Sequence record: NC_073056.1
From: Escherichia phage rolling
Length of the DNA: 46,017 nt
Strand: one strand, 5' to 3'
Every line of letters starts with the position of its first letter. The stretch's first letter is position 1. The notes under the pieces were generated by a model. That model was not told the DNA's origin. It searched no databases and saw only the letters and a list, made by a program, of their open reading frames with translations. The position numbers and the translations under genes are program-made. Shown one piece after another: positions 2,396-42,894 of this stretch.

Positions 2396-2834
2396 GGTCG
2401 GGGGATATCGCGTAAAGGGCAATTTTCTTATCACTGTTTAATATGCGTAGTATGCGCTTTGACACCTCGGCGCTAAGCGCATACCGGTGTAATTCTTCGC
2501 GGCCCAGCCACCCTACCGGAACCAGATCTTTCCGGTCGATCTTAGACTGGCGACCTTTGGGGCGCACGTACTCCTCGGCCCGTTTGCAATGCTCACGCAG
2601 CCCGTCGGCAGTGATGCGGTTTAGTGCAACGCTGGTGGTGTATCCGGTGCGCTGCATAATCCCCATCAATTCGAATAGCAGTTCGAAGCGATCCTCTAAC
2701 TCATGGCGCACTTTCTTCTCGCCTTCATATAGCGCCTGGTTGGTGTCTGCCAGCGCGTTCGCGCGTTCGACCTGTTCGCGGGCTTCGAGGCATTGCGCGG
2801 CCCAGTAATTTTTCTCTTCTTGTAAAATTTTCAT
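2382..2834 (-). CDS. Hypothetical protein (150 aa, coiled-coil-like)
   Basis: ORF track 2382..2876; start moved to internal ATG (M15) with GGAG RBS. Confidence 0.65.
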   Translation of the reverse strand: MKILQEEKNYWAAQCLEAREQVERANALADTNQALYEGEKKVRHELEDRFELLFELMGIMQRTGYTTSVALNRITADGLREHCKRAEEYVRPKGRQSKIDRKDLVPVGWLGREELHRYALSAEVSKRILRILNSDKKIALYAISPDHDEE

Positions 2835-2887
2835 CGTGTTGTCTCCAGGTATTAAAAAGGGCGTCCAACCGGACACCCTTAAGATAA

Positions 2888-2914
2888 TGCAACCAATCTA
2901 ATTACGCAACCAAT
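2888..2914 (-). promoter_or_regulatory. Direct pair of GCAACCAAT motifs upstream of gene 2382..2834
   Basis: TGCAACCAAT 2888-2897 and CGCAACCAAT 2905-2914; a GC hairpin (~2856-2877) follows in the 5' leader. Confidence 0.45.
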
Positions 2915-3238
2915 TTATTCATAAAAATTCGGGTCGCGCGCTACATCTACCAGATAAAGGTTGCTCATTCGGTTGCCGTAGTGCCCTGGCGTGCGCTGGC
3001 GACACACAACTGCGAAGCCTGGAGGGATTGTATTGCCGGTTTCGATAATCCACGCCACGCGCGCGCCAGACAGCTTCTTGCCGTTGCATTCGATACGCGT
3101 ACCGCCATCGGCAGTGTTAAGGTTGCCAATCTTGCTGCCGGTGGACTTAAGGCGAATAACGCCGGTCTTGCTGTCGTAGGAGAATAACTGGTTAGTCATT
3201 GCGACCGAGAAGTCGATGGCTTCGAATGTAGTATTCAT
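2915..3238 (-). CDS. HNH-endonuclease-like protein, apparently degenerate (107 aa)
   Basis: SYDSKTG...NGKK...ARVAW...GNTIPPG pattern resembles HNH_3 homing endonucleases, but the expected His (HRxxW) and DH residues are replaced. Confidence 0.5.
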   Translation of the reverse strand: MNTTFEAIDFSVAMTNQLFSYDSKTGVIRLKSTGSKIGNLNTADGGTRIECNGKKLSGARVAWIIETGNTIPPGFAVVCRQRTPGHYGNRMSNLYLVDVARDPNFYE

Positions 3239-9599: not shown

Positions 9600-9654
9600 T
9601 TTCCAATTCCTCATTTCACATGTATCGGGGTTATTAGAAGCCACCCCGTCCGGC

Positions 9655-9678
9655 TTGGTTGCTAATGTACTTGGTTGC
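9655..9678. promoter_or_regulatory. Pair of TTGGTTGC motifs in SSB upstream region
   Basis: TTGGTTGC at 9655-9662 and 9671-9678, between membrane protein gene and SSB gene. Confidence 0.4.
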
Positions 9679-9695
9679 GTTTCCGCGGTCAAGTG

Positions 9696-9929
9696 TTATT
9701 TATCAAAAAGTTTTAAAATCAGGTCGAGATATTTGTGCAGCCACACCAGTGGTGGGCGGTGCACGTTGTTTCCCATCCAGTTCAAACAGGCTTCGTTATA
9801 GCCGTCGTCCCATAAGCGGGATGGGTGGCGAATCATCCAGGCCAGCGCCAGCAGACCGCCGCAGGTATGTACTACGAATCCCAGCGCCGCAAGCGGCAGC
9901 ACCATAATCATTGCCAGAATCTTATTCAT
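9696..9929 (-). CDS. Small membrane protein (77 aa)
   Basis: Internal ATG (M43 of track ORF 9696..10055) 3 nt after upstream stop; hydrophobic ILAMIMVLPLAALGFVV... segment. Confidence 0.5.
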   Translation of the reverse strand: MNKILAMIMVLPLAALGFVVHTCGGLLALAWMIRHPSRLWDDGYNEACLNWMGNNVHRPPLVWLHKYLDLILKLFDK

Positions 9930-11839: not shown

Positions 11840-12358
11840 TTAATCTTCTAATTCGAAATACGTTTCTACGATTTCTTTTAAATCTTTGTGGAAGTCTTCG
11901 ACGTCGTCATCTTCCAGCTTGGCGACGGATTTAATTTCGAACGCTTCCAGCAGATCATCAAATTCGTCGTTTGCGTCGTCGTCATCTCCGCCCGCAATAA
12001 TAGCGGCATACTGTTTGATTTCGTCGCGCATTTCTTTAAGCGGATCGGCATCTTTCTTGCCTTTGCCTTTCGCCGGTGCTTTCTTAGATTTCGCCGGGGC
12101 TTCTTCCTCGTCCGCGTCGTCGTCTTCTTCTACGGCTTCTTTCTTAGCCTTGCCCTTTGCGGGCGCTTTTTTGGTCTTTGCCGGGGCTTCGTCTTCAGCA
12201 TCGTCATCTTCGGCTACTTCTTCTTTCGCCTTGCCCTTTGCCGGGGCTTTCTTCGCTTCCTGTTTACCAACGGCAGCGCCAGCAGTTTCATAATGCTTAG
12301 CGATGGTTTCCAGTGCTACAACGCCGCGAGTGATCAGGTTTACGATTTGCTCAAACAT
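11840..12358 (-). CDS. Charged low-complexity protein with three KKAPAKGKxKK / acidic repeats; first leftward early gene
   Basis: ORF track; ATG with GGAG RBS; repeats EEVAEDDDAEDEAPAKTKKAPAKGKAKK x3. Confidence 0.7.
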   Translation of the reverse strand: MFEQIVNLITRGVVALETIAKHYETAGAAVGKQEAKKAPAKGKAKEEVAEDDDAEDEAPAKTKKAPAKGKAKKEAVEEDDDADEEEAPAKSKKAPAKGKGKKDADPLKEMRDEIKQYAAIIAGGDDDDANDEFDDLLEAFEIKSVAKLEDDDVEDFHKDLKEIVETYFELED

Positions 12359-12568: not shown

Positions 12569-12597
12569 TTGACACCCTGCAATTTTAGGTGTAGTTT
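12569..12597 (+). promoter_or_regulatory. Rightward promoter (TTGACA-N17-TAGTTT)
   Basis: Consensus -35 TTGACA 12569-12574, -10 TAGTTT 12592-12597, upstream of AGGAG RBS and ATG 12629. Confidence 0.55.
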
Positions 12598-12628
12598 CGT
12601 TGGTCATTAACCAATAGGAGACAGAACA

Positions 12629-12958
12629 ATGCATATCAACGACGCAATCGAAATGTTAACCAATGCTGTTAGCGGTGAGACAAGCCGGTCCTGGGCTTAT
12701 ACCGATGCCGTGGGTGAGGTGCTATTTGAAATCGAACGTCTGCGCAGTGTCGAAAAAGAATTGCGCGCCAAGCTGGAATTGCTAAACGGTACGGCAGCAA
12801 GCAAGTTGCAAAAGCACAACGAAGAAATGGAAGAATACAAAAAGCAGGTTATCCGTTTACGCGACGAGGGCAAGTCCTGGGCGATGATTGCCGAGTTGAC
12901 AGGAATTAATCAGAGCACCGTACGCTCATGGGTACGCAATAATAAAACTTCTAAATAA
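12629..12958 (+). CDS. HTH DNA-binding regulator (109 aa)
   Basis: C-terminal helix-turn-helix SWAMIAELTGINQSTVRSWVRN; ATG with AGGAG RBS. Confidence 0.75.
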   Translation: MHINDAIEMLTNAVSGETSRSWAYTDAVGEVLFEIERLRSVEKELRAKLELLNGTAASKLQKHNEEMEEYKKQVIRLRDEGKSWAMIAELTGINQSTVRSWVRNNKTSK

Positions 12959-12968
12959 GGCAACGGCA

Positions 12969-15230
12969 ATGAGAGATTATTTAATTGAGTTCGGCACCGT
13001 CGGCGGTAAATACGGCAAACGTGTTAAAAACCATTCTATGACTGAAGCCGAGTTTATGGAATACGTCGCTGATACCGTTGAATTATCCAGCGTAACCATT
13101 ACCGGCGACGAGACTAAGAAAGAATACGACGAGGTGAAAGGCAAGGCGGAAGGCATTGTCGCCACCACTAAAGGCCGGGGACGTCGTGCTACGGAAGTGG
13201 GTGTCCGTTCCGTACTGTTCTATGACCTGGACCGCACTGACAACCGTACCCTCGGTCGCGTTAAGCGTGCCTTTCGCAAATCCGGCTTATCCCACGTCTA
13301 CTACTCCACTACAGGCGACCGCCACCCGCTGAAGGGCGGCACACGTTGCGCCCGTTTCCTGGTGCTCACTGATAAACCGGTTGATGTTTCCGATTTAGGC
13401 CGTGCGCAGTTCGCACTATTGAAACACCTGGGGCTGGAAGACGTGCCGTTTGATGATTGCACAAAAAACGTTAACAACCTGCAATTCCTCCCCCATTCCG
13501 GATCTACCGTGTCGTGTCATCCTGGCACGCCAGCCCGTGTCCGTCGTCTGCTTCGCCTGGCTGACAAGCTGGGAGTGGAGAAAGAGGAAGTACGCCGCGA
13601 ACTGACCCAGGGCGACGATGGCGTGGCGGACGGGATTCTGGATTGGTGCTTCCAGGCTGGCTTTGAACCACTGTCATCCGGTCGCGGTTATGAAGTGCCG
13701 TGCCCGAACGAGCACCTGCATAGCGGCGGCGGGTCGACGGCTATCATGGTTAAGGATGGCGAGATCCGTTTCAAGTGTATGCACACCGGAAACGAGTGCT
13801 GTTCCGAACTGAACAGACACCAGCACCTGGCGCTACGTCTTATAGGGATCCCGGACCACCTGAACGTCGAACCGCACAACATGTCACGTAAGCAAATCGC
13901 CGCCATTCTCCCTGGACTGGACGACGAGGAAGTCGAATCGTGCTATGAACATATTGTTGATGCAGTTGGCGACGGCGAAGAATACGGCGTGTGCACCGAT
14001 GCGGATCTGGATAACGAGCCGGTCGCACTCTTCAGTAAGCACGACCCGATCATAGAAGGCCTGGTAAACTTCAAATCGACCTGGTACATGGCTGGCGAGT
14101 CGAACATCGGTAAATCGTTCTACGTGCTGGGGCAAATGGGCGCGGTTGCCGCGGGGATTCCGTTCGGTGGCGCGAAGGTAGTCCAGTCTCATTGCTTCTA
14201 TTTCGACGCGGAAGGTGGTGAAGCCTCCAACCAGCGTAAAGAAGCATTGCAGATTAAATACGAGCACGACCTGGACAAGCTGCACATTATCGATCTGCAA
14301 TCACGCGGCTGGGATATCACCAGCAAATCCGGCTTGCGTGAAGTTATCAGCTTCATCAACCGCACCGCTAACGGCGAGCCGGTTGGCCTGGTGGCGTTCG
14401 ACTCACTCAACCAGACTGTTGCGCTGCGGTCCGCCGATGCAAAACCGTTCGACGAGAATAACGCCAGCGATATGGGTGAAGTGGTCAAAGCGCTGAAGGC
14501 CATTGCGGAAAATACAGGCGGCAGTGCGGGCGTCATCCACCACCCAGCGAAGGGTGCAAACGGCAGCAGATCTCCCCGTGGGTCCGGCGCGCTTCATGGT
14601 GCTGTTGATTCTGCGTTCTTCCTGGAACAGCCGGATGACAACCAGCCAGGCCAACTCAACCTGTATCACGAAAAATCCCGTAACGGGATTAAGCAAGCGC
14701 CGCGTGGCTTCGTCCTGCTCAAATGCAAGGTGAAGGTGGATCTCCGTAAGTCCGAGGCGTTCGAAGCCCACCAGTCCACCAGCACCGGTCCGGACTTCGG
14801 CGATGTGGTTGCCGGTTGGGACGTCAAGCCAATTGCATCCACGCCACGCGACGAGACTCTCTACCTCGTACCGGTCGCCCTGGCACCGTTCGCTATCGAA
14901 CAGGCGAAGGCGGCTGGCAAGGCAGCAGTTAAGGAAGAGAACACCGCCGGTCCGCGCAACGAAAAAGAGAAAGTGCTTTATGCGGCGCTGGAAAAACTGA
15001 TGGAAGATAACCCGGACCATACCGGATTCAGTAAATCGGCAATTGTCCGCCAGGCAGGGCTGGCAAAAGGTGGCACTTCGACGAAGGCAATCGACGATAT
15101 GGTGGAGCGCGGAGTGATAGGTTTTTACACCGATCCGCACACCGGGGCCATCTATGGGTCGTCTAATTTGGTCATAAAAACGAATATACCCATCACGCTT
15201 TCGGCGACCGATGACGACCTGAAAGATTAA
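12969..15230 (+). CDS. Primase-helicase replication initiator (primase-polymerase N-domain, RecA-like ATPase, C-terminal winged-helix-like region)
   Basis: Walker A GESNIGKS, RecA-like AFDSLNQ / VIHHPAKG segments, C-terminal HTH-like tail. Confidence 0.85.
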   Translation: MRDYLIEFGTVGGKYGKRVKNHSMTEAEFMEYVADTVELSSVTITGDETKKEYDEVKGKAEGIVATTKGRGRRATEVGVRSVLFYDLDRTDNRTLGRVKRAFRKSGLSHVYYSTTGDRHPLKGGTRCARFLVLTDKPVDVSDLGRAQFALLKHLGLEDVPFDDCTKNVNNLQFLPHSGSTVSCHPGTPARVRRLLRLADKLGVEKEEVRRELTQGDDGVADGILDWCFQAGFEPLSSGRGYEVPCPNEHLHSGGGSTAIMVKDGEIRFKCMHTGNECCSELNRHQHLALRLIGIPDHLNVEPHNMSRKQIAAILPGLDDEEVESCYEHIVDAVGDGEEYGVCTDADLDNEPVALFSKHDPIIEGLVNFKSTWYMAGESNIGKSFYVLGQMGAVAAGIPFGGAKVVQSHCFYFDAEGGEASNQRKEALQIKYEHDLDKLHIIDLQSRGWDITSKSGLREVISFINRTANGEPVGLVAFDSLNQTVALRSADAKPFDENNASDMGEVVKALKAIAENTGGSAGVIHHPAKGANGSRSPRGSGALHGAVDSAFFLEQPDDNQPGQLNLYHEKSRNGIKQAPRGFVLLKCKVKVDLRKSEAFEAHQSTSTGPDFGDVVAGWDVKPIASTPRDETLYLVPVALAPFAIEQAKAAGKAAVKEENTAGPRNEKEKVLYAALEKLMEDNPDHTGFSKSAIVRQAGLAKGGTSTKAIDDMVERGVIGFYTDPHTGAIYGSSNLVIKTNIPITLSATDDDLKD

Positions 15231-15339
15231 TTTGTGCGCGTATTGGTTGCCGATATGGGAATTCCCATATCGCTAAAAGATTAAATTTTGCGCGCATTGG
15301 TTGCCATTTTGGGTGTTTTTAGCTGGTCGCATTGGTTGC
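15222..15339 (+). repeat. Tandem duplication of primase 3' end with three ATTGGTTGCC motifs and a 22-bp perfect palindrome
   Basis: AAAGATTAA..GCGCG.ATTGGTTGCC at 15222-15251 and 15276-15305 (~27/30 identical); palindrome CGATATGGGAATTCCCATATCG at 15251-15272; third ATTGGTTGC at 15331-15339. Confidence 0.7.
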
Positions 15340-15371
15340 CGTGTAGTGTAAATATAGTGAATAGTTATGCA

Positions 15372-15547
15372 GTTTTATTGCATAAAGTAAGCGGGACAAA
15401 AAGCGGGACAAACATGGGGCGGGACAAAGCGGGACAGCACCCCCTGTCCCGCCCGGATGGCGCGGCTTGCGGAGGAGCGGGACAGGCGGGACAAACCTCA
15501 GTCTTTCAGACTAGACGGGGTCAGTTGGCCCCCCTCGTCTGAGACTG
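15372..15547 (+). repeat. Iteron array 1: GCGGGACA x7 with TGCATAA motifs and conserved ~50-bp imperfect hairpin
   Basis: GCGGGACA at 15391, 15403, 15419, 15429, 15477, 15487 plus inverted TGTCCCGC at 15445; hairpin 15499-15547; AT-rich stretch just upstream. Confidence 0.85.
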
Positions 15548-15701
15548 CATAAAATCCGGGATTGCATAACGCACGGCAGCATGATGTGAATTGCGGTCGT
15601 CGATGAACTAGGCAACCAATGCGTGTTGAATAATGGAGAGTGAAAAATGCAGTTTGCAGTTGCAGCAGATAGCGATCAACTTTTTCATACGCATGATTAA
15701 T

Positions 15702-15742
15702 ATTGGTTGCATTCAGCCTGGCACCCTGCTAGATTGGTTGCA
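15702..15742 (+). promoter_or_regulatory. Promoter-like element with two ATTGGTTGCA motifs upstream of gene 15764
   Basis: ATTGGTTGC 15702-15710 and ATTGGTTGCA 15733-15742; TTGCAT-N17-TAGATT reads as a sigma70-like promoter. Confidence 0.45.
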
Positions 15743-15763
15743 CACCAACAAGAGGATTGAACA

Positions 15764-16090
15764 ATGAGAGCATTAATCTGGAATTACTCACTGGCAATGG
15801 CGAAGGCACAAGAAGCGGCGGAGTTCGCCGGTGAGGGGGCGGAAGCGGTAGAAAGACTATCGGCAGCGTGGTCCGTTGTTCGCGTCACGCAGCAGGCCAT
15901 CGCCTGTATGCTGGAGCGCCGCTTCGACACGATGGAAGAGATCCAGCCGCTGGCTTCTGCCATCCAGGACTACGCGCTTGCATTCGCCCGTGAGCGCCTG
16001 GCCTATCGCCTCGGTATTGGCGAGAAGGCATTGGCAAACGTCGCCCGGATTAAAGCCCAGCGCGAACTATTCGCCAAGCTTGCGAAATAA
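15764..16090 (+). CDS. Hypothetical protein (108 aa)
   Basis: ORF track; ATG with AGAGGA RBS. Confidence 0.7.
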   Translation: MRALIWNYSLAMAKAQEAAEFAGEGAEAVERLSAAWSVVRVTQQAIACMLERRFDTMEEIQPLASAIQDYALAFARERLAYRLGIGEKALANVARIKAQRELFAKLAK

Positions 16091-23841: not shown

Positions 23842-24928
23842 TCAACATATGGCGGATCGTATGATTCGCCGTCACATCTTCACCCAGCGCCTGAGCAATG
23901 ATCAGGCGCTGCGGGTGTTGGCTATGTGGGAGAAGTTCCGACCCACGTTACTTGGCAAGCTGACCGAGTTACTTGATGGCAAAAAGTCCATGAATAACAA
24001 GGCACTGACCACACTGTTAACGCAAATAGACAAAACCGTCAAAACGGAACTGCGCACCGAGTTTAAGGCGCTGGCTGAAAGCCTTCAGGAGTTTGCCGAC
24101 ACCGAGGCTGATTATCTTGCCGATACATTAACGGCAGCGATCCAGCCTGCGGTAGCCGTACCGGCTGTTGAGGTTGTTGGCGTAGTGACTGGCGCGCAGA
24201 TTGCAGCCACGGCTATGAAAAACCCGTTCCAGGGAAACACCATGATGCAATGGCCTGATTCACTTTCTGAGTGGATCAGGACGCAGATCGGGAATCAGGT
24301 GCGCGCTGGATTCATCCAGGGCAAGCCGACTATGGAAATTATCGCGGACGTAAAGCGCGCTCTCGGCGGTCGTAGCGCGCAAGCTATCTCAAGTGTTGTT
24401 AAGTCCGCAGTAAACCACTATGCGGCGACCGCCCGCGAGTTATTGGTGAAAGCTAATGACGATATTCTCGAAGGTCGCCAATGGTTGGCTACATTGGATA
24501 CGCACACATCACCAATGTGCCAACTACGCGATCGCCTGTTTTATCCTGTTGACGTCACTCCCGACACCAAAGGAAAGCGCGGCGGGAAAGTGGTGGCTGG
24601 ATCACAATATGGCGCTGGTCCGGGCAAGCTACATTATTGCTGCCGTTCGACGGAGACGTGGAAAGTTAAAGGCATGGAAGATTGGCCCAGTGGTAAGCGT
24701 CCGGCACTGAAGGCTGACGCGGGTCGATTGCTGAGTGAGCAGGTCGACGCTCAGACTGATTTCTTCTCATGGGTGCAGCGCCAGCCGCGCCATATTCTGG
24801 AGGAATTATATGGGGTGCAGCGCGCAGACCAGATTATGCGCGGCGTGAAAGTGCCTAAGATGTTCACCGATACCGGCGAACTAATGACTATTGCACAGCT
24901 TAAAAACCGGGGGTTATGGCGTGATTAA
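23825..24928 (+). CDS. Head morphogenesis protein (Mu F / SPP1 gp7-like)
   Basis: Position after portal; conserved-looking HYAATARELL...WLATLDTHTSPMC segment. Confidence 0.75.
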   Translation: MARTINQHMADRMIRRHIFTQRLSNDQALRVLAMWEKFRPTLLGKLTELLDGKKSMNNKALTTLLTQIDKTVKTELRTEFKALAESLQEFADTEADYLADTLTAAIQPAVAVPAVEVVGVVTGAQIAATAMKNPFQGNTMMQWPDSLSEWIRTQIGNQVRAGFIQGKPTMEIIADVKRALGGRSAQAISSVVKSAVNHYAATARELLVKANDDILEGRQWLATLDTHTSPMCQLRDRLFYPVDVTPDTKGKRGGKVVAGSQYGAGPGKLHYCCRSTETWKVKGMEDWPSGKRPALKADAGRLLSEQVDAQTDFFSWVQRQPRHILEELYGVQRADQIMRGVKVPKMFTDTGELMTIAQLKNRGLWRD

Positions 24929-25229
24929 ATATGCGGCTATTGGACTGGTTATCGGTCTGGCGGTTGGATTCTGGCAGGGTGATTCCTACCGCACTGGCGT
25001 TGTGGCGAAAGCGGCGCAAGAAGCGCAAGCGAAAGCCCAACGGCAGCAAACTAAGGTTGTTGAGGGGTCGGTGAAAGCTGAGCAGGCCCGCGACGTGGAA
25101 TACCGGACTATCACGAAAGAGGTTGTAAAATATGTTACGCGTCCTAACCGTCCTGATTGTAGTTTTGATGCTGAGCGCGTGCGGATCAAGCAAAGCGCCA
25201 TCGACGCCGCTAACCGAGTCGGTCTATAG
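24921..25229 (+). CDS. i-spanin (Rz-like)
   Basis: N-terminal TM AAIGLVIGLAVGFW then Ala/Gln-rich coiled coil; start uncertain (in-frame GTG 24921 or track start 24891); contains overlapping o-spanin. Confidence 0.65.
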   Translation: MIKYAAIGLVIGLAVGFWQGDSYRTGVVAKAAQEAQAKAQRQQTKVVEGSVKAEQARDVEYRTITKEVVKYVTRPNRPDCSFDAERVRIKQSAIDAANRVGL

Positions 25230-25362
25230 ACCGCCTTGCACATTTGAGAATGCCTCGGCAGACCCAGACGAAGACTTGCTTGTTGATGTTAAAAATATGG
25301 AGTGCGGATCTAAGCTGCGGGCGCAAGTGCTGGAGTTGCAGAAAATAATTCTGGGGCCGTGA
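25132..25362 (+). CDS. o-spanin (Rz1-like lipoprotein), overlapping Rz in +1 frame
   Basis: Signal peptide with lipobox LSAC, Pro-rich mature part; ATG with AGAGG RBS. Confidence 0.75.
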   Translation: MLRVLTVLIVVLMLSACGSSKAPSTPLTESVYRPPCTFENASADPDEDLLVDVKNMECGSKLRAQVLELQKIILGP

Positions 25363-25379
25363 TGGCCCCCCTTTTGTTA
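25340..25379 (+). terminator. Terminator hairpin, left copy of a 40-bp direct repeat
   Basis: AGAAAATAATTCTGGGGCCGTGATGGCCCC + T-run; GGGGCC/GGCCCC stem, Rz1 stop codon in the loop. Confidence 0.7.
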
Positions 25380-25380
25380 A

Positions 25381-25893
25381 CTACAAACGCATCGGCATGA
25401 TAACTAAAAAGGAACCTCCTTTGAACAGCACGCGTGTTGCCTTGTCTACTCCCTGAAATTCCAGTTTTAAGCCCTCAAACTTATGGTCGAACAATTTAGC
25501 AATTTTGCAGGCGTCGGACAGGTATGCCCCTTTAAACCCGATAGCCTCCACTTTATTGCTGACGAAAGACGTAACTCTTCTCCAGTCTGGAAATCGTCCG
25601 TCTACAATCTCGATGGGTATGGTAGCTATTAATACGTCTTTACTATCGAAGAACGCGGCGGAGGTGCCGTCTATGTTGCAGTATTCGAATTTAGTAGGTA
25701 AGCGGCCTTTAATTGATACTATTTTACTTTCACCTTCTGGAACAACCGCGGACCCGCAGAACAAACGGTGACCGTCGGTAGCCACGATGAATCCTTTCTC
25801 GTCGAAAAATACACCATTTAGGAAGTATCGGACGTCATTAGTTGCGGCGCACATCGTAGCGGCTTTAATGTCGGCATAGTTAACTTTAATCAT
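25381..25893 (-). CDS. Truncated beta-sliding-clamp (DnaN) homologue (about 170 aa)
   Basis: DVRYFLNGVFF...VATDGHRLF, IVDGRFPDWRRV and C-terminal LVIMPMRL match DnaN domain II/III hallmarks as recalled from E. coli DnaN; start at internal ATG (M27) with GAGGA RBS. Confidence 0.75.
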   Translation of the reverse strand: MIKVNYADIKAATMCAATNDVRYFLNGVFFDEKGFIVATDGHRLFCGSAVVPEGESKIVSIKGRLPTKFEYCNIDGTSAAFFDSKDVLIATIPIEIVDGRFPDWRRVTSFVSNKVEAIGFKGAYLSDACKIAKLFDHKFEGLKLEFQGVDKATRVLFKGGSFLVIMPMRL

Positions 25894-25915
25894 TTTCATT
25901 TCCTCGTGGTTATGT

Positions 25916-25955
25916 AGAAAATAATTCTGGGGCCGTGATGGCCCCTTTTTTGTTA
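25916..25955 (+). terminator. Terminator hairpin, right copy of the 40-bp direct repeat
   Basis: 30/30 identical to 25340-25369 then T6; duplicates the last codons of Rz1 plus the hairpin. Confidence 0.7.
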
Positions 25956-26717
25956 GCGCGGAATACCGCAAATCTCGTTGAGTGTTTTCACGTCCAGCGC
26001 CACCGCCGTGGACTTCGTCTTGTTCTGATATGGAATGAACTGTTCAACTTCAGGCCACGCCTTGATCAGCTTCTTATCGGTATTGTGCATATCCAGCACG
26101 CCGGTAACAGTTAGCTTGAACGCGTCATACTTTGCGCGCAACTCGCGGCGGGCCTTGTCATTTCGGTCCAGGCGCTTGCAGAAATCATGATCGGCCGGGT
26201 AGTCTACGCGTCCGCGCGGGAGATATATCGGCAGCACTTTTCCGTCCTCATCCACTTCGCACACTGACGCGAGCATAATTTCCGCGTACCCCGGTACAAT
26301 ATCGCTAACGTCAGGCGCGAGCGTATTCATATATTTCTCTTCCCAGTATCCGCGATGCCGGCGGTAGCTGTATCCGTCACCGCTCATATACAGGGATCGG
26401 ATGTTACCGCCTGCGTTGATTTCGAAATTGTCGCAGTAAACGCACCCAATACCCTTCTGACGGTCTTTGTTATAGCTATACGTCGCCTTGTCGGTGTAAA
26501 CGCTGACGCCATACATCTGCGACTGGTTATTGCGGATTTCTTCGATATATGCGCGTAGCTCGGCGAACGTGCGAATGCCTTTTGGCATACAGTCCAGCGT
26601 AATTGCGTACGCCAGGTCGCGAGAGTCCATCATGATTGATTTGGCTTCAGTCGCGATTTCGTGGTCGCGCAGGATGTTAGCCAGAATCTGGTTTTTAATG
26701 TCTTTTGTCAGTCGCAT
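25953..26717 (-). CDS. Hypothetical protein (254 aa), moron gene antisense to the late operon
   Basis: Track ORF 25953..26762 from internal ATG (M16) with GAGGA RBS; no family recognised. Confidence 0.65.
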   Translation of the reverse strand: MRLTKDIKNQILANILRDHEIATEAKSIMMDSRDLAYAITLDCMPKGIRTFAELRAYIEEIRNNQSQMYGVSVYTDKATYSYNKDRQKGIGCVYCDNFEINAGGNIRSLYMSGDGYSYRRHRGYWEEKYMNTLAPDVSDIVPGYAEIMLASVCEVDEDGKVLPIYLPRGRVDYPADHDFCKRLDRNDKARRELRAKYDAFKLTVTGVLDMHNTDKKLIKAWPEVEQFIPYQNKTKSTAVALDVKTLNEICGIPR

Positions 26718-26739
26718 TTGTGTTTCCTCATTGTTGGTG

Positions 26740-26811
26740 TGCAACCAATATAGTGCAACCAATACCTGTATTGCAAGCGAATTTTGCGATTATTTTTATC
26801 GCTGATAATAT
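26740..26811. promoter_or_regulatory. Back-to-back divergent promoters (leftward for moron genes, rightward for scaffold/capsid)
   Basis: Leftward: TTGCAA (26771-26776) N18 TATATT (plus 26747-26752), with TGCAACCAAT at 26740-26749 and 26754-26763; rightward: TTGCGA (26784-26789) N16 TAATAT (26806-26811). Confidence 0.5.
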
Positions 26812-26866
26812 TAAAGGCGTGAAGTCGAGCGGGTGGCCCGCTCTGCCACGATCCCAGGGGGATAGC

Positions 26867-27571
26867 ATGGAAATTACTAAAGCAGAATATGACGCGTTGC
26901 CGGAAGGTATGAAGGCGCTTTTTGTTGCCAATGGCGACGGGTATAAATCAACATTTATGTCCGCTGAGGAAGTACAGGCGGAAATCAAGGGTCTGAAAGA
27001 CAACAACGCAAAGCTGGTGAGCGAGAAGAAAGCAGAAGCTGAACGCCGCGCCGAAGCCGAGCGCCTTGCAAAAGAGAAAGAGGAAGCCGCCGCGCGCAAA
27101 AATGGCGACCTCGAAGCGATCGATAAGTCCTGGAAGGATAAGTTTGCAAAACACGAAGCAGACACATCGGGGAAAATCGAATCCTATCGCAAGCAGATCC
27201 ACGACCTCACTGTCGGCAGCGCTGCCAAAGACCTGGCATCGAAGCTGTTTGGTAAGAATGCTGGCATCATGCAACGCCACGTAATGGAGCGCCTCGCGCT
27301 GGAAGACGGCGAAGACGGCAGCTTGAAAGTGCGTGTCTTGCAGGATGGCAAACCGTCCGCGCTTACTATGGACGAGCTTGAAAAAGAGTTTCGTAATAAC
27401 GCTGATTTTGCATCCGTCCTGGCGGGCACGCCAGCAGGTGGCGCACCGAGCAAACCGACACAGGTTATCGAAGATGCGAAGTCTAAAATCACGATGGGCC
27501 ATAGCTTCGGTATCACCGACCTGACAAAACAGGCAGGGGATATCATCGCTAAGATGGGCGACGACGAGTAA
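26867..27571 (+). CDS. Scaffolding protein (putative)
   Basis: Internal ATG (M55) with RBS; Ala/Glu/Lys-rich coiled-coil; immediately upstream of capsid gene. Confidence 0.65.
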   Translation: MEITKAEYDALPEGMKALFVANGDGYKSTFMSAEEVQAEIKGLKDNNAKLVSEKKAEAERRAEAERLAKEKEEAAARKNGDLEAIDKSWKDKFAKHEADTSGKIESYRKQIHDLTVGSAAKDLASKLFGKNAGIMQRHVMERLALEDGEDGSLKVRVLQDGKPSALTMDELEKEFRNNADFASVLAGTPAGGAPSKPTQVIEDAKSKITMGHSFGITDLTKQAGDIIAKMGDDE

Positions 27572-27575
27572 GCAG

Positions 27576-27600
27576 ATCGCCCGCGAAAGCGGGCGATTTT
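27576..27600 (+). terminator. Hairpin / partial terminator between scaffold and capsid genes
   Basis: ATCGCCCGC-GAAA-GCGGGCGAT stem-loop followed by T4. Confidence 0.4.
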
Positions 27601-27668
27601 GCGAGCGCGTAAATCTAAGGTAACATTAACGTCACTGGGCGAATGCTCACAACTCAAAGGATTTCGAT

Positions 27669-28769
27669 ATGTCTTTAACAGTGTTCCAGCGTAAACTCGT
27701 TACCGCGGTTACGCAAATGATTCCCGACAACCTGAACGTGTTCAACGCTGCCGCTAATGGCGCTGTTGTTCTCGGTACAGGTGAAGTGCTGAAGGACGTT
27801 GTAGAAAAAATGTCAGTAGGCTTGATCGCCAACCTCGTTACTGACCGTAACGCATATGCGCCTGTTGGCACACCGGCAACCGCTAAAGTGCTGGCGCGTA
27901 TGCTGACCAACTCGGTTAACCTCTCCGCGAAAGTGGGTCCGGTAGCAATCACTAAGGCTATGATGGCTAAAATCGAAACCAACGTTAACAGCGTTGCGGC
28001 TGAGATTGCGGCACAGGCTACTCAAGCGATTATGCTGCATTACCTGAAAGCTGGTATCGGCGCAAGTAAAGCGGCGATCGAGAGCAACGCAGCGGCAGCA
28101 TACACCCAACCGGCGCGCGTAGATGGCGTTGGCGGTCGTACCTTCCCGACCCTGGCAGACTTCCCGCTGGCGGCTTCTAAGTTCGGCGATCAGGCGTCTT
28201 TGATTAAGTCCTGGTTTATGGATGGCGTTACCTGGGCTAACTTCATTGCCTATCAGGCGCTTCCTTCCGCTGAGCAGGTATTCGCGATCGGCGATCTGCA
28301 AGTAATGGGCGATGGCCTGGGCCGTCGATTCATTATCTCCGATGCCGCTGCCGATGCTATGGGCGCGGGCAAAATGCTGGGTCTGGTCCCTGGCGCGGTT
28401 GCAGTTACCACCAACGGCCTCGATATGCTGGCGCAGGAAAAAGGCGGTAATGAGAACATCGAACGCTGGTGGCAGGGTGAGTTCGACTTCAACGTGGCTG
28501 TTAAAGGCTATCGTCTGAAGGCGTCCGCTCGTACTCCGGTTGAAGGTGTCCGCTCGTTCACACTGGCGGATATCACCACTAAAGACAACTGGGAGCTGGA
28601 TCAGGGCCAGGTAGACAACGCTCCGGCAACCGTCCAGGATGTTGGCGCGGTGGGTGATGGCGATACTAAAGGCCGTCGCAAGACCCAGGCAGCGCAGGCC
28701 GTGCCGACCCGTAACATCAAGGAAACGGCTGGCGTACTGGTTACGCTGACTGCTACCAGCGCGTCGTAA
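27669..28769 (+). CDS. Major capsid protein
   Basis: 366 aa ORF after scaffold with AAGGA RBS, followed by strong terminator; call from synteny and composition. Confidence 0.8.
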   Translation: MSLTVFQRKLVTAVTQMIPDNLNVFNAAANGAVVLGTGEVLKDVVEKMSVGLIANLVTDRNAYAPVGTPATAKVLARMLTNSVNLSAKVGPVAITKAMMAKIETNVNSVAAEIAAQATQAIMLHYLKAGIGASKAAIESNAAAAYTQPARVDGVGGRTFPTLADFPLAASKFGDQASLIKSWFMDGVTWANFIAYQALPSAEQVFAIGDLQVMGDGLGRRFIISDAAADAMGAGKMLGLVPGAVAVTTNGLDMLAQEKGGNENIERWWQGEFDFNVAVKGYRLKASARTPVEGVRSFTLADITTKDNWELDQGQVDNAPATVQDVGAVGDGDTKGRRKTQAAQAVPTRNIKETAGVLVTLTATSAS

Positions 28770-28786
28770 TCGGCGCACATCCCAAA

Positions 28787-28812
28787 GGGGCGGGCTTATG
28801 CCCGCCTTTTTT
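28787..28812 (+). terminator. Intrinsic terminator after capsid gene
   Basis: GGCGGGC-TTAT-GCCCGCC followed by T6. Confidence 0.7.
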
Positions 28813-28827
28813 ATAGGAGCGAATAAA

Positions 28828-29328
28828 ATGTATGGCGACCCGCAAACCTTTACTGATTATGCCGCTGCGCGAGGCGTTGAGATTACGCTGGGCGATGCAA
28901 CGCGACACCTTACCATCGTTAATGACTTCCTTAACGGCATCAACTGGATCGGCGAACAAGCGGACCAGACCGGAATCGACGCATGGCCCCGCATTAACTA
29001 CCCGTCAGACGGTAAGCCGGTGCGGGACACGCTCACTGAAGTTGTGGCGGTAGTGCCTGCCGGGCAGATCGTAGACTTCGCATCAATCCCCGTTGCCGTT
29101 GAGCAAGCCGTTTACCGGCTGGCGCTGTTAGTGGCGGAAGATATTGATATTTCGCCGATCGGCGGTGGAAAGGAGACTATCCGCGAAACGGTTGGACCGA
29201 TCACGATGGAATATGACCCCGCGACGATTGGCGGATACGTGGCGTTCCCGTGGTGGGATGGCTTGCTGGGCTACTGGGTGAACGTAGACGGCAACGCTTC
29301 AGGTAACTTTGACGTATACAGGGGCTAA
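28828..29328 (+). CDS. Head-tail connector / head completion protein (putative)
   Basis: Internal ATG (M11) with AGGAG RBS; position between capsid and tail genes. Confidence 0.55.
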   Translation: MYGDPQTFTDYAAARGVEITLGDATRHLTIVNDFLNGINWIGEQADQTGIDAWPRINYPSDGKPVRDTLTEVVAVVPAGQIVDFASIPVAVEQAVYRLALLVAEDIDISPIGGGKETIRETVGPITMEYDPATIGGYVAFPWWDGLLGYWVNVDGNASGNFDVYRG

Positions 29329-29329
29329 T

Positions 29330-29443
29330 ATGAATCCGGCTGTTATTGCAGCGTTGCTGGCGGCGCTGGCGACGAAAGAGAAAGAGGAAGAACCAGTACC
29401 GCCGGAAACACCGGCGCAGGAGGAAGACGATGGCGGGCTTTGA
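29330..29443 (+). CDS. Putative small acidic protein (37 aa)
   Basis: Read by eye; ATG in TAATATG overlap with upstream stop; overlaps next gene start. Confidence 0.3.
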   Translation: MNPAVIAALLAALATKEKEEEPVPPETPAQEEDDGGL

Positions 29444-29783
29444 CTACGCGGGCTTAAAGCGGAAAGTTAATCCGCTGATTAAAAAATTCGGCACGACAGT
29501 TACCGTGACGCGTCCTGGATCTGTTGACCGCGTTAACGGCGACGAAGTGGTAATCCCGCCGACCTCGTTTGATATTGTCGGACTGCGGGAGGAGTACAAG
29601 CCACGCGAGATCGACGGAACGCGAGTTATTGCCGGTGATGTTAAGTTTTTATGTCAGGCGGCGGAGCAAGTGCAGGTAGGCGATCTTGTTAACCTGAATA
29701 ACACAGATTACCGTGTTATCAATCCTACCCCACTGCAACCGGCGGGCACTACCATGCTGTTTCAATTACAGCTAAGGGGCTAA
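29430..29783 (+). CDS. Head-tail joining protein (putative)
   Basis: Internal ATG (M29) with AGGAGG RBS; 117 aa; synteny. Confidence 0.55.
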   Translation: MAGFDYAGLKRKVNPLIKKFGTTVTVTRPGSVDRVNGDEVVIPPTSFDIVGLREEYKPREIDGTRVIAGDVKFLCQAAEQVQVGDLVNLNNTDYRVINPTPLQPAGTTMLFQLQLRG

Positions 29784-29784
29784 C

Positions 29785-30378
29785 GTGGCTGAGGTCTACT
29801 CGTTCGCCGCTACCATTGCAACATGGGTAGATAAGACGAAGGAGAACAACGACAAGGCGGTGCGGGCGACCGGTATGCAAATACTCGGACGCCTGATTGA
29901 GATCTCCCCGGTGGGCGACCCCCGCCGGTGGAAGATAAACAAGGCGTACGCGATGGCCCGCCAGCACGCGAACAAGGTGAACGCCGCACAGCGCCGCAAG
30001 AATGGCGGCAAACTGAAGCGCGGGCAGAAAAAGCACGCCAGTGTATTGGTATCGTTCAAGACTAAAAACGGCAACGTCACGTTCCGCCAGCGTGGCTGGG
30101 CCGCGAAGAACTACACCGGCGGACGCTTCCGGGGGAACTGGCAGGTGTCTTTCGACCGTCCGGCTGTTGGCGCGGTTGACCGAGTGGATAAGGCCGGAAC
30201 GGCAACATTAGCGGCGGGGCGTGACGTACTGGCGCATTACGATTCTGGCGAATACGGGTCGATCTGGTTTACTAACAACGTGCCGTATGCGCAGCGACTT
30301 GAGTATGGCTGGAGTAAACAAGCGCCCGCGGGGATTGTTCGCGTCGTAGCGGCAGAAATCAATTCTAAGGTGAAATAA
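29785..30378 (+). CDS. Tail completion / neck protein (HK97 gp10-like, putative)
   Basis: ORF track; RBS AAGGGG; position and size. Confidence 0.55.
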   Translation: MAEVYSFAATIATWVDKTKENNDKAVRATGMQILGRLIEISPVGDPRRWKINKAYAMARQHANKVNAAQRRKNGGKLKRGQKKHASVLVSFKTKNGNVTFRQRGWAAKNYTGGRFRGNWQVSFDRPAVGAVDRVDKAGTATLAAGRDVLAHYDSGEYGSIWFTNNVPYAQRLEYGWSKQAPAGIVRVVAAEINSKVK

Positions 30379-31655: not shown

Positions 31656-32018
31656 ATGGCTAAATCACCACTCTTCACACTTGACCCTAAGCCGACCTTT
31701 AAGCTGCCGATTGAGATCCCGCGCCCTGGTGAGAACGAGCCAGGCAAGATGACCTTTACCGTCCGCCACCGCCCGATCGACGAGTTTTCGCAGACCATGC
31801 AGGACACCGAACGCAAGCTGTCGGAATATAACGACAATGACCCGGACGGCTTTAACGTTATGGTCGAGGCCATCATGCACGTCGCTGAAGGCTGGAATCT
31901 GCCAGACCAATTTAACGCGGAGAACGTCCGCCGCCTGGTAGTCAACTACCCGCGCGCGTTCGGCGTGTTCCACACCTCGTACTATCTCGAACTGATGGGA
32001 TTGCGTGAAAAAAACTGA
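31656..32018 (+). CDS. Tail assembly chaperone (gpG-like)
   Basis: Internal ATG (M6) with GGAG RBS; ends in slippery A_AAA_AAC just before stop. Confidence 0.75.
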   Translation: MAKSPLFTLDPKPTFKLPIEIPRPGENEPGKMTFTVRHRPIDEFSQTMQDTERKLSEYNDNDPDGFNVMVEAIMHVAEGWNLPDQFNAENVRRLVVNYPRAFGVFHTSYYLELMGLREKN

Positions 32019-32332
32019 TTGAGGCGGCGCGACGCTTTTATGGCCCGCCGCCACCCTCCGAAGATTTAGCCGCTAGTTTATGGGGTGCGGCCCCCGAGGA
32101 TGTTTGTCCACCTGTTGCGCTATGGCCCGACAACGCGAAGATAGTCGCCGTATTCACAGATTGCTCTACGCAATGGCGCACCGGATTCGGTGGGGCATAC
32201 GGCATCGACTACGGCGTTCTGGAGTGGCTATTTAAGATGCACGGCATCGAAAACGAGCAACGTGCATTTAAAGATATAAAGCTAATGGAGCGAATCGCGC
32301 TTGATGAAATGGCGCAACAAAACCCCGCATAA
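31656..32332 (+). CDS. Tail assembly chaperone G-T fusion by -1 programmed frameshift (join 31656..32015, 32015..32332)
   Basis: Heptamer A AAA AAC at 32009-32015; the -1 frame is closed just upstream and open for ~105 codons downstream to TAA 32330-32332. Confidence 0.65.
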
Positions 32333-32336
32333 TGAA

Positions 32337-32661
32337 GCGGGACGGATCGGGACGTCCCGATTTGTCCCGTTTTGTCCCGCCCCCAGTAAAACTGCATACC
32401 TACCCACTTTCATTGCATAAACTCAAAGCGGGACAAGCGGGACGCCCCGATCCGTCCCGCCCATTAAATGTGCATACCTATTCAGATCTCGTGCATAAAA
32501 CAAACGGGACAAAAAGCGGGACAAACATGGGGCGGGACAAAGCGGGACAGCACCCCGTCCCCGTCAGTGCTGCCGCGGGTTTTAGCCGATCGGGACAGGC
32601 GGGACAAAGCCCAGTCTTTCAGACTAGACGGGGGTCAGTTGGCCCCCCTCGTCTGAGACTG
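32337..32661 (+). repeat. Iteron array 2: GCGGGACA-type repeats (>=14 copies) with TGCATAA motifs and the same conserved hairpin
   Basis: Copies at 32337, 32347, 32428, 32437, 32516, 32532, 32542, 32599 and inverted copies; palindrome CGGGACGTCCCG 32348-32359; ~52-bp and ~65-bp blocks near-identical to array 1; hairpin 32612-32661. Confidence 0.85.
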
Positions 32662-35412: not shown

Positions 35413-36012
35413 ATGGCGCAAGGTACAATCACACTAACGAACGGAAGTAAGACCGTCACGGGCGCGGGGACGGCGTTCCTGAGCGAGATCGGGAAGGTCC
35501 GCGTATTTGCCCGCATCGACGGCAACGACTACACCGGTAAAATCGCTGCATTCAACTCTGACACCGTCATCACCCTGGTGGATAACTGGGCCGGTCCGAC
35601 AAAAGCCGGTGCAGCCTACGAGCTAATCGAAGCGCACGACCCGCGATCAAACGAATGGCCCTATTACTGGCACATGCAATTGCAGGGCGGCGGCGACGTG
35701 CAATTGGCTTTCCGGTCGGAGGAATTGCAATTCGGTAACGGCTATGGTCAGAACATCGCAGACGGCCCGAACGCCGAGACGAAACAGTTCCCCGTGCAAT
35801 TCATCGGACTGACTACGGACAAGTGGTGTGACCCTAGACTGGTGTACAACTTCCTTCGCGGGCACTTCGTCAAGCCGTTTGTCGTCACCGCGCCGGATGG
35901 CGAAACAGGTTTATTCGTGGTCGAGCGTTCGAGCTTGTCGTACACTGACAACGGACACTACACGGCAACTGTATCAGCCACCCTTAAGACTGCTATTGGA
36001 TTCGTAAGATGA
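35413..36012 (+). CDS. Minor tail protein (gpM-position)
   Basis: ORF track; first gene after tape measure. Confidence 0.65.
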   Translation: MAQGTITLTNGSKTVTGAGTAFLSEIGKVRVFARIDGNDYTGKIAAFNSDTVITLVDNWAGPTKAGAAYELIEAHDPRSNEWPYYWHMQLQGGGDVQLAFRSEELQFGNGYGQNIADGPNAETKQFPVQFIGLTTDKWCDPRLVYNFLRGHFVKPFVVTAPDGETGLFVVERSSLSYTDNGHYTATVSATLKTAIGFVR

Positions 36013-36797
36013 ATAAACTATATCGCGAGGCGACGCGCTTTGACCCATCGGGCCGCGTTCGCCTGATTCACATTGACGCGCAGGACGTGGAGCCGGGCGA
36101 CGGCGCGATCGGCGCGGGCCACCACTATTTTCATTACTGCTTTATTCCGCATACTGCCGAAGATATTGCTGCCGCTGGTGGAGACGAGGACAAGCTGAAG
36201 CCAAAATCTATCTTCTTTGGCGGGCAGGAGTTCGAATTTTGGCCCTTCGATTTGTCCGGCCTCAACTTCTCCACATCAACGGCAGCAGAACCGCAGCTAA
36301 CTATCGTCGATATTGGCGGGATTATTACCCGGCTGTCGCTGAATCACGACCAGCTACTAGGCGCGAAGGTTGAGATCATCGACACGTTCGCGAAGTTCCT
36401 GGACAACGGGCCGGATCCAGACCCGACGCAAAAACGTGTACAGGAGTTTTACATCGACTCCCAGGTGGGCCGAAATCCGGGCAAACAAATCACCTTCGCA
36501 TTATCCTCGCCCGCGGATATGGAGGGGCAAGTAGTCCCGCGCCGCCAAATCATGAATATGTGCGAATGGGCGCTAAATGGGAAGTACGCCAGCGGGGACG
36601 GGTGCACCTGGAACCTTGCACAGCCTGGCATTAAGTATTACGACGAGCGCGGCAATGAAGTCATCGCGATGGATATGGACCGATGCGGCGGATGTTTGTC
36701 AGACTGTTACCTTCGTTTCGGACAAGGGCTTGCGGATCCGAAAGCGGCGGTACTGGACTACGGCGGCTTTCCGGGGTCCAGATTAATTAAGGGGTAG
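36009..36797 (+). CDS. Minor tail protein, gpL-like
   Basis: C-terminal Cys cluster CGGCLSDC as in lambda gpL; synteny. Confidence 0.75.
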   Translation: MNKLYREATRFDPSGRVRLIHIDAQDVEPGDGAIGAGHHYFHYCFIPHTAEDIAAAGGDEDKLKPKSIFFGGQEFEFWPFDLSGLNFSTSTAAEPQLTIVDIGGIITRLSLNHDQLLGAKVEIIDTFAKFLDNGPDPDPTQKRVQEFYIDSQVGRNPGKQITFALSSPADMEGQVVPRRQIMNMCEWALNGKYASGDGCTWNLAQPGIKYYDERGNEVIAMDMDRCGGCLSDCYLRFGQGLADPKAAVLDYGGFPGSRLIKG

Positions 36798-42579: not shown

Positions 42580-42600
42580 AAGCCCCGAAAGGGGCTTATT
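42580..42600. terminator. Hairpin between convergent genes (putative bidirectional terminator)
   Basis: AAGCCCC-GAAA-GGGGCTT; overlaps the stop of the minus-strand lipoprotein gene. Confidence 0.5.
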
Positions 42601-42814
42601 TGCAGGTTGTGCTTTTGAAATGGCCTACAGACACGTACTGGAAACTAAACGGATAGCCAGCCCGTAACATTTTATGACCGCTAACGTCCGCAACCCCAAA
42701 CACAGGGACTGAGTACTCCATACCACTATTCATGTATGTTGCGTCGCAGATTTTAGACGGCATATTGGCACAACCGGACAAAAGAACCACACAAATCATA
42801 ATTAAAGTTTTCAT
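42596..42814 (-). CDS. Small outer-membrane lipoprotein, Cor/Llp-like putative superinfection-exclusion protein
   Basis: Internal ATG (M22) with AGGAG RBS; signal peptide with lipobox LLSGC; 72 aa; antisense, next to tail fibre genes. Confidence 0.65.
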   Translation of the reverse strand: MKTLIMICVVLLSGCANMPSKICDATYMNSGMEYSVPVFGVADVSGHKMLRAGYPFSFQYVSVGHFKSTTCK

Positions 42815-42894
42815 GGTATCATCTCCTATATTTGGTTGGGTTTTAGTATTGCACCGCTCAACCAAGAATGCAACCAATTTATGAGGATTCAGCT

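Follow-up and report, generated by a model that had tools for sequence, protein, structure and literature searches.

How are genes that face leftward within a rightward operon transcribed, and how is transcription supplied to the head genes that follow them? This question is raised by a 149-bp noncoding gap (26718-26866) in Escherichia phage rolling (NC_073056.1), whose 46,017-nucleotide (nt) sequence, the window analyzed here, constitutes the entire genome of a Dhillonvirus. The minus-strand neighbor of the gap is nmad5 (25956-26717; 254 amino acids, aa; Pfam Nmad5, E = 6.6e-56), the first gene of a leftward cassette. On the plus strand, the rightward side carries the gene for the head scaffolding protein (26867-27571; 234 aa) and the major capsid gene, both assigned from the annotation of relatives. 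The best explanation of the gap as a whole, to which we give a probability of about 0.6, is that it is a conserved bidirectional control region of this Dhillonvirus. It very probably holds two back-to-back host-type promoters, and a repeated 10-mer, TGCAACCAAT, that overlaps the leftward one has in our estimate an even chance of being the operator of a trans-acting regulator.

Two predicted divergent promoters in the nmad5-scaffold gap

Embedded as they are in a rightward operon, the leftward genes need a promoter of their own, and the gap is the only noncoding DNA upstream of them. A consensus scan found TTGCAA-N18-TATATT on the minus strand (-35 at 26776-26771, -10 at 26752-26747), the same hexamers from which the original prediction had proposed a leftward promoter. 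The pair matches the consensus at 9 of 12 hexamer positions and is one of only two scan matches within 24000-30000; the second base of the -10 is A and the sixth is T, and hexamers and spacer conform to the sigma-70 pattern. Transcription is predicted to start near 26740, giving a 23-nt leader (26718-26740, minus strand) with the Shine-Dalgarno sequence GAGGAA at 26729-26724 and the nmad5 ATG at 26717. Both the orientation of the site and its distance suit a gene that has a ribosome-binding site.

The scaffold and capsid genes would need a restart of transcription because two predicted terminator hairpins (25353-25369 and 25929-25945, described below) close the rightward portal/MuF operon. The rightward pair that had been proposed, TTGCGA-N16-TAATAT, was present on the plus strand at 26784-26789 and 26806-26811, together with a TG at 26803-26804 that had been missed and that makes the -10 an extended one (TGaTAATAT, 26803-26811); the second and sixth bases of the hexamer are again A and T, respectively. 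With a TG one base before the -10, a weak -35 (TTGCGA), and a 16-nt spacer, the site resembles the extended -10 (TGn) promoters of Escherichia coli and is not unusual among them. With 8 of 12 hexamer matches, the site falls under the threshold of the consensus scan. A start predicted near 26818 would give the scaffold gene a 49-nt leader, in which the Shine-Dalgarno sequence AGGGGGA lies at 26856-26862. Literature searches for Dhillonvirus promoters, transcript-mapping studies, or transcriptomes found none that were relevant.

Conservation was assessed by aligning the gap with that of 16 relatives (14 IMG/VR contigs, Escherichia phage vB_EcoS_WF5505, and SECphi18). WF5505 is 95.7% identical over the 2.4 kb surrounding the gap, and nearly all of its genes map onto the window. 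At the leftward promoter, the TTGC of the -35 was unchanged throughout (the hexamer being TTGCAA, TTGCAT, TTGCAC, or TTGCGC), and the -10 was TATATT in 15 of the 16 relatives and TACATT in the other. The stretch between them varied, with 11 of 20 columns variable at 26750-26769 and the most variable part of the entire region at 26764-26770, although the spacer length was held near 17 to 18 nt. Hexamers that are kept while the spacer is free in sequence and held in length are the pattern expected of a working promoter, and they support this one.

The rightward promoter lies in a nearly invariant 42-nt block (26773-26814, plus strand), in which 3 of 42 columns varied, compared with 42% of scaffold third-codon positions. 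TGaTAATAT was unchanged in every relative, and the spacer contains an inverted repeat, GCGAT-N7-ATCGC (26786-26802, plus strand). Read on the minus strand, the same block is an A/T-rich, UP-like region of the leftward promoter. No second copy of the block, or of GCGAT-N5-9-ATCGC, was found elsewhere in the genome, and a family of "late promoters" built on the block and its inverted repeat was rejected for that reason.

The predicted scaffold leader contains a hairpin, GAGCGGG-TGG-CCCGCTC (26827-26843, plus strand), about 10 nt away from the start site predicted near 26818. It is not followed by a T-run and so is not a terminator. Four columns vary in the last 50 nt ahead of the scaffold start codon, three of them in the hairpin stem. 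The stem is fully paired in all five distinct sequences: G-C has become A-U once and G-U twice, substitutions that preserve pairing in plus-strand RNA only. Among five distinct sequences, this pattern is suggestive evidence of plus-strand transcription and is not significant.

Hexamers by themselves carried little weight. Across the genome, the consensus scan returned 36 distinct sites with at least 9 of 12 matches, where about 34 were expected, and it was discarded as stand-alone evidence for promoters. In a second scan with our own rough position-weight matrix, the leftward site ranked 15th and the rightward site 23rd of 91,974 positions. In 2,000 dinucleotide shuffles of the 149-bp gap, the leftward score was reached in 4.4%, the rightward score in 11%, and both in 0.3%. 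The proposal of two divergent promoters gained from conservation, from the correct genes standing behind each site, from leaders of 23 and 49 nt with Shine-Dalgarno sequences, and from the weight-matrix ranks and the joint shuffle frequency; hexamer matches alone are at chance level.

These numbers bear on the possibility that one or both hexamer pairs arose by chance, that the conserved blocks serve another role, for example as an RNA element or as the site of a host protein, and that the genes are transcribed from elsewhere. Such a reading fits the chance-level frequency of comparable hexamer matches genome-wide and the ease with which shuffles reach the plus-strand score, and the invariant rightward spacer with its GCGAT-N7-ATCGC repeat suggests an extra constraint. 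We consider it very improbable. It leaves leftward genes in a rightward operon with no other noncoding DNA upstream, and rightward transcripts would meet two predicted terminator hairpins before the scaffold gene. Moreover, the invariant columns coincide exactly with the hexamers and the intervening stretch is variable, and no Rfam family matched anywhere in 25000-28000 at E values up to 1. Two divergent sigma-70-type promoters are the best reading of these elements, a prediction that the combined evidence supports; taken singly, each site is in our judgment likely to be a promoter.

A 10-mer shared by two genera overlaps the predicted leftward promoter

As had also been noted, the leftward promoter overlaps two copies of TGCAACCAAT, both on the plus strand. 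Copy 1 (26740-26749) takes in the final 3 nt of the leftward -10, extends across the start predicted for this promoter, and is nearly invariant in the relatives; copy 2 (26754-26763) falls within the leftward spacer, with 1 nt between it and the -10. Together they form a 12-nt direct repeat, GTGCAACCAATA (26739-26750 and 26753-26764), that overlaps the leftward spacer, -10, and predicted start. Measured from the predicted rightward start, the centers of copies 1 and 2 lie near -74 and -60, respectively.

The original prediction treated the motif as a local curiosity, a view that did not survive a count of its occurrences. With at most one mismatch, TGCAACCAAT occurs at 18 sites, where 3.4 were expected, and none of 100 shuffles reached 18. 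The 9-mer GCAACCAAT is the commonest in the genome, and 13 of its 16 exact copies lie in the 8% of the genome that is noncoding; it is the second commonest 9-mer in SO-1 (14 copies). In eiAU-183, an Edwardsiella phage of the genus Eiauvirus with 60.6% capsid identity, the top 9-mer is GCAACCAAC/TGCAACCAA, and 23 copies of GCAACCAA lie mostly between genes. Only 0 to 1 copies were present in Kagunavirus RP180, in Cornellvirus SP-049, and in a Klebsiella phage with related head genes and a different replication module. RP180 and SP-049 share DNA polymerase, helicases, and the primase/helicase with this phage, yet they lack the motif or carry it once. Literature searches for the motif found no description of it, and this putative regulatory 10-mer, shared by two genera, has probably not been described before.

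The motif is associated with predicted promoters. Eight of the top 20 weight-matrix sites overlap it, where 0.34 were expected, and within noncoding DNA only, 8 of the 15 top sites do so, where 2.4 were expected (P = 0.001). Some strong promoters have hexamers independent of the motif, as in TTGACA-ccccgca[TGCAACCAAT]c-TATTAT at 12449, where the motif lies in the spacer, and TTGACC-N17-TACATT-a[GCAACCAAG] at 9692. Neither the orientation of the motif nor the spacing between copies is fixed. A fixed -10 partner (a -10 followed by GCAACCAAT) was rejected, with about 6 of 22 listed sites fitting, as was a fixed -35, which fits 8 of 22 sites here and 3 of 22 in eiAU-183. Excess in noncoding DNA and overlap with core promoters are what an operator would show, the overlap being subject to the caveat that the motif itself contains TTGCA. 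Sites in spacers and at predicted starts are in the positions of operators that exclude RNA polymerase, and the putative regulator is probably phage encoded.

Two of these loci have further features. The noncoding stretch at 9600-9698, before the gene for an Enc34-type single-strand DNA-binding protein, contains the variant CTTGGTTGC twice, the copies being 16 bp apart. In TTGACC-N17-TACATT, one of them occupies the spacer and the other stands immediately past the -10; a hairpin follows. The best promoter of the genome (12449-12420, minus strand; TTGACA-N18-TATTAT, 11 of 12) has the motif in its spacer and is predicted to drive 11843-12358 (minus strand). The product of this gene, a 172-aa acidic protein with KKAPAKGKAKK repeats, resembles a histone H1-like or DNA-mimic protein and is conserved in eiAU-183, RP180, and SP-049.

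The main alternative account accepts the promoters as real and takes the 10-mer not as a protein operator but as a building block of a repeated promoter-leader cassette, in which it supplies TTGCA as the -35 and ATT as the end of the -10, having been spread by recombination and kept as a promoter. Good -10-like hexamers do stand 16 to 18 nt after TTGC at 8 of the 22 motif copies (P = 7e-6), for example in ATTGGTTGCAT-N17-TAGATT at 15707 and, with the same -35 element and spacing, AATACT at 42873 and TATAGT at 5851; the same design is found in eiAU-183 at 18151 and 42949. Each Dhillonvirus genome has the 18-mer ATTGGTTGCACACCAACA at exactly two promoter-leader loci: at one, it spans motif copy 1 and the nmad5 leader, and the other precedes a variable gene at 15764. 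Variable genes stand directly behind these promoter-leader units, a third leftward accessory gene (for a lipoprotein, 42596-42814) is preceded by ATTGGTTGCAT-N17-AATACT, and eiAU-183 has a repeated promoter-leader cassette of its own. Precedent exists in the PeSLs, repeated sigma-70 promoter and stem-loop cassettes beside variable genes (PMC2839356). We nevertheless regard this account as unlikely. Of the 22 copies, 14 do not coincide with a -35; the motif is found in either orientation, both within spacers and at starts, and it forms an array that follows the primase/helicase gene. In addition, the flanks are not conserved around the 10-mer, nor between genera with 60% capsid identity, which therefore argues for selection on the 10-mer itself rather than for a cassette inherited as a block.

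The units themselves can be described as follows. At 15707-15763, TTGCAT-N17-TAGATTGGTTGCACACCAACAAGAGGA precedes the gene at 15764 and from the -10 on nearly matches the nmad5 unit; in relatives, the sequence of its spacer changes but the length does not, and in two genomes the unit is followed by a different gene, of 59 aa. The eiAU-183 cassette, TTGCAx-N17-TATAGTTAAaTCAACTTAACA...GAGGA...GCAGAAATG, occurs in at least four places (13217, 27731, 28074, and 42915).

The distribution of the 10-mer also raises the possibility that it is primarily a replication element, with the copies serving as iterons that are bound by a replication initiator. Those in promoters, including the two in the gap, would couple transcription to replication, as do DnaA boxes or plasmid Rep iterons. 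In both genera, the densest motif cluster is found right after the primase/helicase gene: this phage has six copies between 15242 and 15742, and eiAU-183 has at least nine between 26870 and 27640. The cluster adjoins A/T-rich DNA and GCGGGACA repeats, the SO-1 record marks a repeat region there, and an unrelated viral contig contains about 12 copies of TAATTGGTTGCATCC within 450 bp. Against this, SP-049 and RP180 carry the same primase/helicase (45% and 33% identity, respectively) yet have 0 to 1 motif copies, and most copies are single or paired in short intergenic gaps where they overlap promoter-like sites. We judge a primary role in replication decidedly unlikely; an operator remains our preferred reading of the 10-mer.

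The cluster lies in a 536-bp gap after the primase/helicase gene (15228-15763), in which three of the six 10-mers fall within longer repeats (GGCAACCAATgCGCGCAaAATTtAATCTTT). The same gap includes A/T-rich DNA and at least seven GCGGGACA repeats, its SO-1 equivalent is annotated as repeat "region B," and the physical ends of the WF5505 record map to it. It is probably an origin or terminus region. Repeats of CGGGAC/GTCCCG similar to those at 15400-15520 recur at 32322-32449 in the tail block and correspond to SO-1 repeat "region A." They belong to the interval 32016-32449, which opens with a 316-bp stretch to which no WF5505 gene maps. The tape-measure open reading frame listed from 32332 probably starts later, the WF5505 homologue aligning from 32731.

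Search for a protein that binds the motif

Several results weigh against reading the gap as a pair of promoters governed by an operator. The hexamers are of modest quality (9 of 12 and 8 of 12), each within reach of chance, and promoter function alone does not explain the invariant rightward spacer. The covariation in the leader hairpin was equaled in 179 of 500 shuffles, with only five distinct sequences to compare, and its folding energy is unremarkable (z = -1.0). Overlap of the motif with -35-like sites is partly circular, TTGCA being part of the motif, and in eiAU-183 the association of motif and promoters is weak within noncoding DNA. Finally, no compared phage protein that could serve as the cognate binder fits the distribution of the motif. 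The 109-aa helix-turn-helix (HTH) protein encoded at 12629-12955 was rejected, having no homologue in eiAU-183, and the primase/helicase was rejected because phages lacking the motif encode it at similar identity. The distribution of the motif fits a factor peculiar to the two genera and speaks against the primase/helicase as the binder.

The 12629-12955 protein passes the Pfam thresholds for HTH_23 and Sigma70_r4_2; eiAU-183 encodes an unrelated XRE-type HTH protein at the corresponding position. A PDB sequence search with the 12629-12955 protein was uninformative, and no PDB relative of the primase/helicase was found. The HTH and primase/helicase genes share a predicted promoter in the gap at 12569-12628 (TTGACA-N17-TAGTTT), with an inverted repeat (TTGGTcattAACCAA; TTGGT-N5-ACCAA) at its start. 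AACCAATAgGAGACA occurs twice in this gap; the ACCAAT part of the motif may here form an autoregulatory site.

Two further candidates were rejected. Nmad5 is absent from SO-1 and had no match in any Edwardsiella phage, and both SO-1 and eiAU-183 keep the motif. The acidic, lysine-rich protein encoded at 11843-12358, the first of a leftward operon, is of low complexity and also occurs in motif-free phages. Of the nonstructural proteins compared, only three match the distribution of the motif (a DUF6378 protein, a Dam-type methylase, and a small HNH protein), and none of them is an obvious regulator. Among the sites of host regulators, the ATTGGT half-sites of PdhR and other GntR-type proteins and the CytR octamer GTTGCATT resemble the motif only partially.

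A scan of IMG/VR for two nearby motif copies returned mostly unrelated coding tandem repeats. One G+C-rich viral contig (IMGVR_UViG_3300038463_000167) contains the noncoding TAATTGGTTGCATCC array mentioned above at 2750-3180, with copies in both orientations, upstream of a gene whose product includes an HTH-like stretch. No protein similarity between this contig and the phage was detected.

Variable genes behind a conserved, predicted leftward promoter

The block conserved among the relatives stops at ...CACCAACA, a few bases ahead of the start codon, and what follows differs among close relatives. Five unrelated first genes stand behind the same block: nmad5, a clamp-like gene, and genes for proteins of 140, 109, and 53 aa. 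In this window, nmad5 is followed by the clamp-like gene; in EP23, the clamp-like gene comes first and nmad5 second, and in SO-1, the clamp-like gene is alone. Other close relatives have nmad5 alone, the 140-aa protein with or without nmad5, the 109-aa protein followed by nmad5 or the clamp-like gene, or the 53-aa protein followed by nmad5.

The clamp-like gene is listed at 25384-25935 on the minus strand, with the ATG at 25899 as its likely true start, and has a weak match to the central domain of the DNA polymerase III beta subunit. It is flanked by two 43-nt direct repeats, copy 1 at 25337-25379 and copy 2, 93% identical, at 25913-25955. Each contains a G+C-rich hairpin, GGGGCCGTGATGGCCCC, at 25353-25369 in copy 1 and at 25929-25945 in copy 2. 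The repeats look like the footprint of a cassette insertion by recombination at the hairpin. The end of the leftward cassette is marked by the hairpin at 25353-25369, the predicted terminator of the rightward portal/MuF/spanin operon; at both hairpins, T-runs are present rightward, and those on the minus strand are weak (AGAATTATTT).

Whether these genes merit the name "moron" that they had been given depends on the gene. The label suits the slot as a whole and the clamp-like gene, which has a G+C content of 44.9% versus 54.2% for the genome and for which copies at 80% identity or above are confined to 14 phage records, the listed ones including Dhillonvirus relatives. It suits nmad5 less well, which is found in about 148 Dhillonvirus records and has a near-genome G+C content of 52.1%. 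This gene is non-essential, is apparently toxic to clone, and has been linked to Tmn defence by a single missense change that lets phages escape (PMC11846954).

eiAU-183 is without the leftward insert, its MuF gene (35465-36592) directly preceding the scaffold gene (36679) at a distance of 86 bp. This gap contains TTGCAC-N17-TAGTAT ahead of the scaffold gene, with one motif copy in the spacer, followed by a G+C-rich stretch resembling the 5' arm of the leader hairpin. As eiAU-183 keeps a promoter-like site in the absence of the insert, the internal head promoter seems to be older than the insert.

A second case of a leftward accessory gene in the rightward late operon is found at 42596-42814, which encodes a 72-aa lipoprotein (MKTLIMICVVLLSGC...) with a G+C content of 42.9%. 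It faces away from the tail-fiber gene across an 80-bp gap (42815-42894) in which ATTGGTTGCAT-N17-AATACT is accompanied by three motif copies, one full and two degenerate; the design is that of the nmad5-scaffold gap.

Discussion

We propose that a leftward sigma-70-type promoter with a start near 26740 transcribes a swappable accessory cassette, here nmad5 and the clamp-like gene, and that a rightward extended -10 promoter with a start near 26818 restarts scaffold and capsid transcription past the portal/MuF terminator hairpins, yielding a transcript whose leader has a hairpin about 10 nt from its 5' end. A trans-acting factor would bind the two 10-mers and shut the leftward promoter and, when made, would also block the other motif-bearing promoters of the genome, while the rightward head promoter would be left running or possibly be helped. 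Repression as the sign of this regulation is a tentative assignment, and activation of the rightward promoter, suggested by motif centers near -60 and -74, is pure conjecture. As the two -35 hexamers are 7 bp apart and the UP-like A/T-rich DNA of the leftward promoter is the rightward -35 and spacer, competition between polymerases is plausible. Co-regulation of, or interference between, the two promoters, which the original prediction had suggested, is drawn from this geometry only.

Back-to-back promoters of two gene classes, with putative regulator sites that overlap one and lie upstream of the other, recall phage phi29, in which protein p4 drives the switch between the divergent early A2b/A2c and late A3 promoters. 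In such an arrangement, a single protein could shut off one promoter and favor its neighbor. The p4 site is an inverted repeat, whereas the 10-mers here form a direct repeat.

The slot also resembles the PeSL units of T4-type phages, short repeated units in which a sigma-70-like promoter is combined with a G+C-rich stem-loop and an A/T-rich stretch upstream (PMC2839356, PMC4122927). PeSL units sit before variable, non-essential genes, bound the insertions, deletions, and replacements seen among relatives, and mediate modular exchange (PMC2839356, PMC4122927). The likeness here lies in the five first genes behind one promoter block and in the 43-nt hairpin repeats that bracket the clamp-like gene. 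The differences are that these are siphoviruses of about 45 kb with two full promoter-leader units per genome rather than about 50, that what is shared is a 10-mer occurring in either orientation and in many registers, and that promoter and hairpin stand at opposite ends of the cassette instead of forming a composite unit; there is no evidence for mini-circles.

Morons of lambdoid phages, reportedly described by Juhala et al. and by Hendrix et al. in 2000, offer another parallel. As in those phages, an extra unit with its own predicted promoter and terminator lies between genes that are adjacent in a relative (eiAU-183), its content is variable, and the clamp-like gene is low in G+C. In contrast, this phage is virulent, so that prophage expression is not involved, nmad5 is nearly universal in the genus with near-genome G+C content, and the promoter block belongs to the conserved backbone. 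Divergent promoter pairs, extended -10 promoters, morons, and promoter cassettes beside plastic genes are all well known. The findings do not overturn current ideas; they point to an expected kind of regulation in a group in which it had not been described, with a mapped accessory-gene slot as a by-product.

A broader possibility, which we consider rather doubtful, is that TGCAACCAAT is the operator of an undescribed regulator, specific to Dhillonvirus and Eiauvirus, that times most promoters of these phages, with the gap as a one-site switch and the promoter-leader units as recombination joints. If this is true, the switch would shut the promoter of a hot-swappable accessory and anti-defence slot while the adjacent head-gene promoter runs or is helped, and the motif-bearing promoter-leader units would serve as joints for the exchange of accessory genes. 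Dhillonviruses are widely used in studies of defence systems (the BASEL phages and SECphi18) and in phage engineering. For these phages, the gap offers two concrete, testable promoters, and nmad5, tied to Tmn by escape mutations, occupies a slot in which relatives carry other genes behind the same control block. The slot would be a natural site for the insertion or exchange of payload genes, and the 10-mer may help to identify the regulator and to sort the genome into temporal classes.

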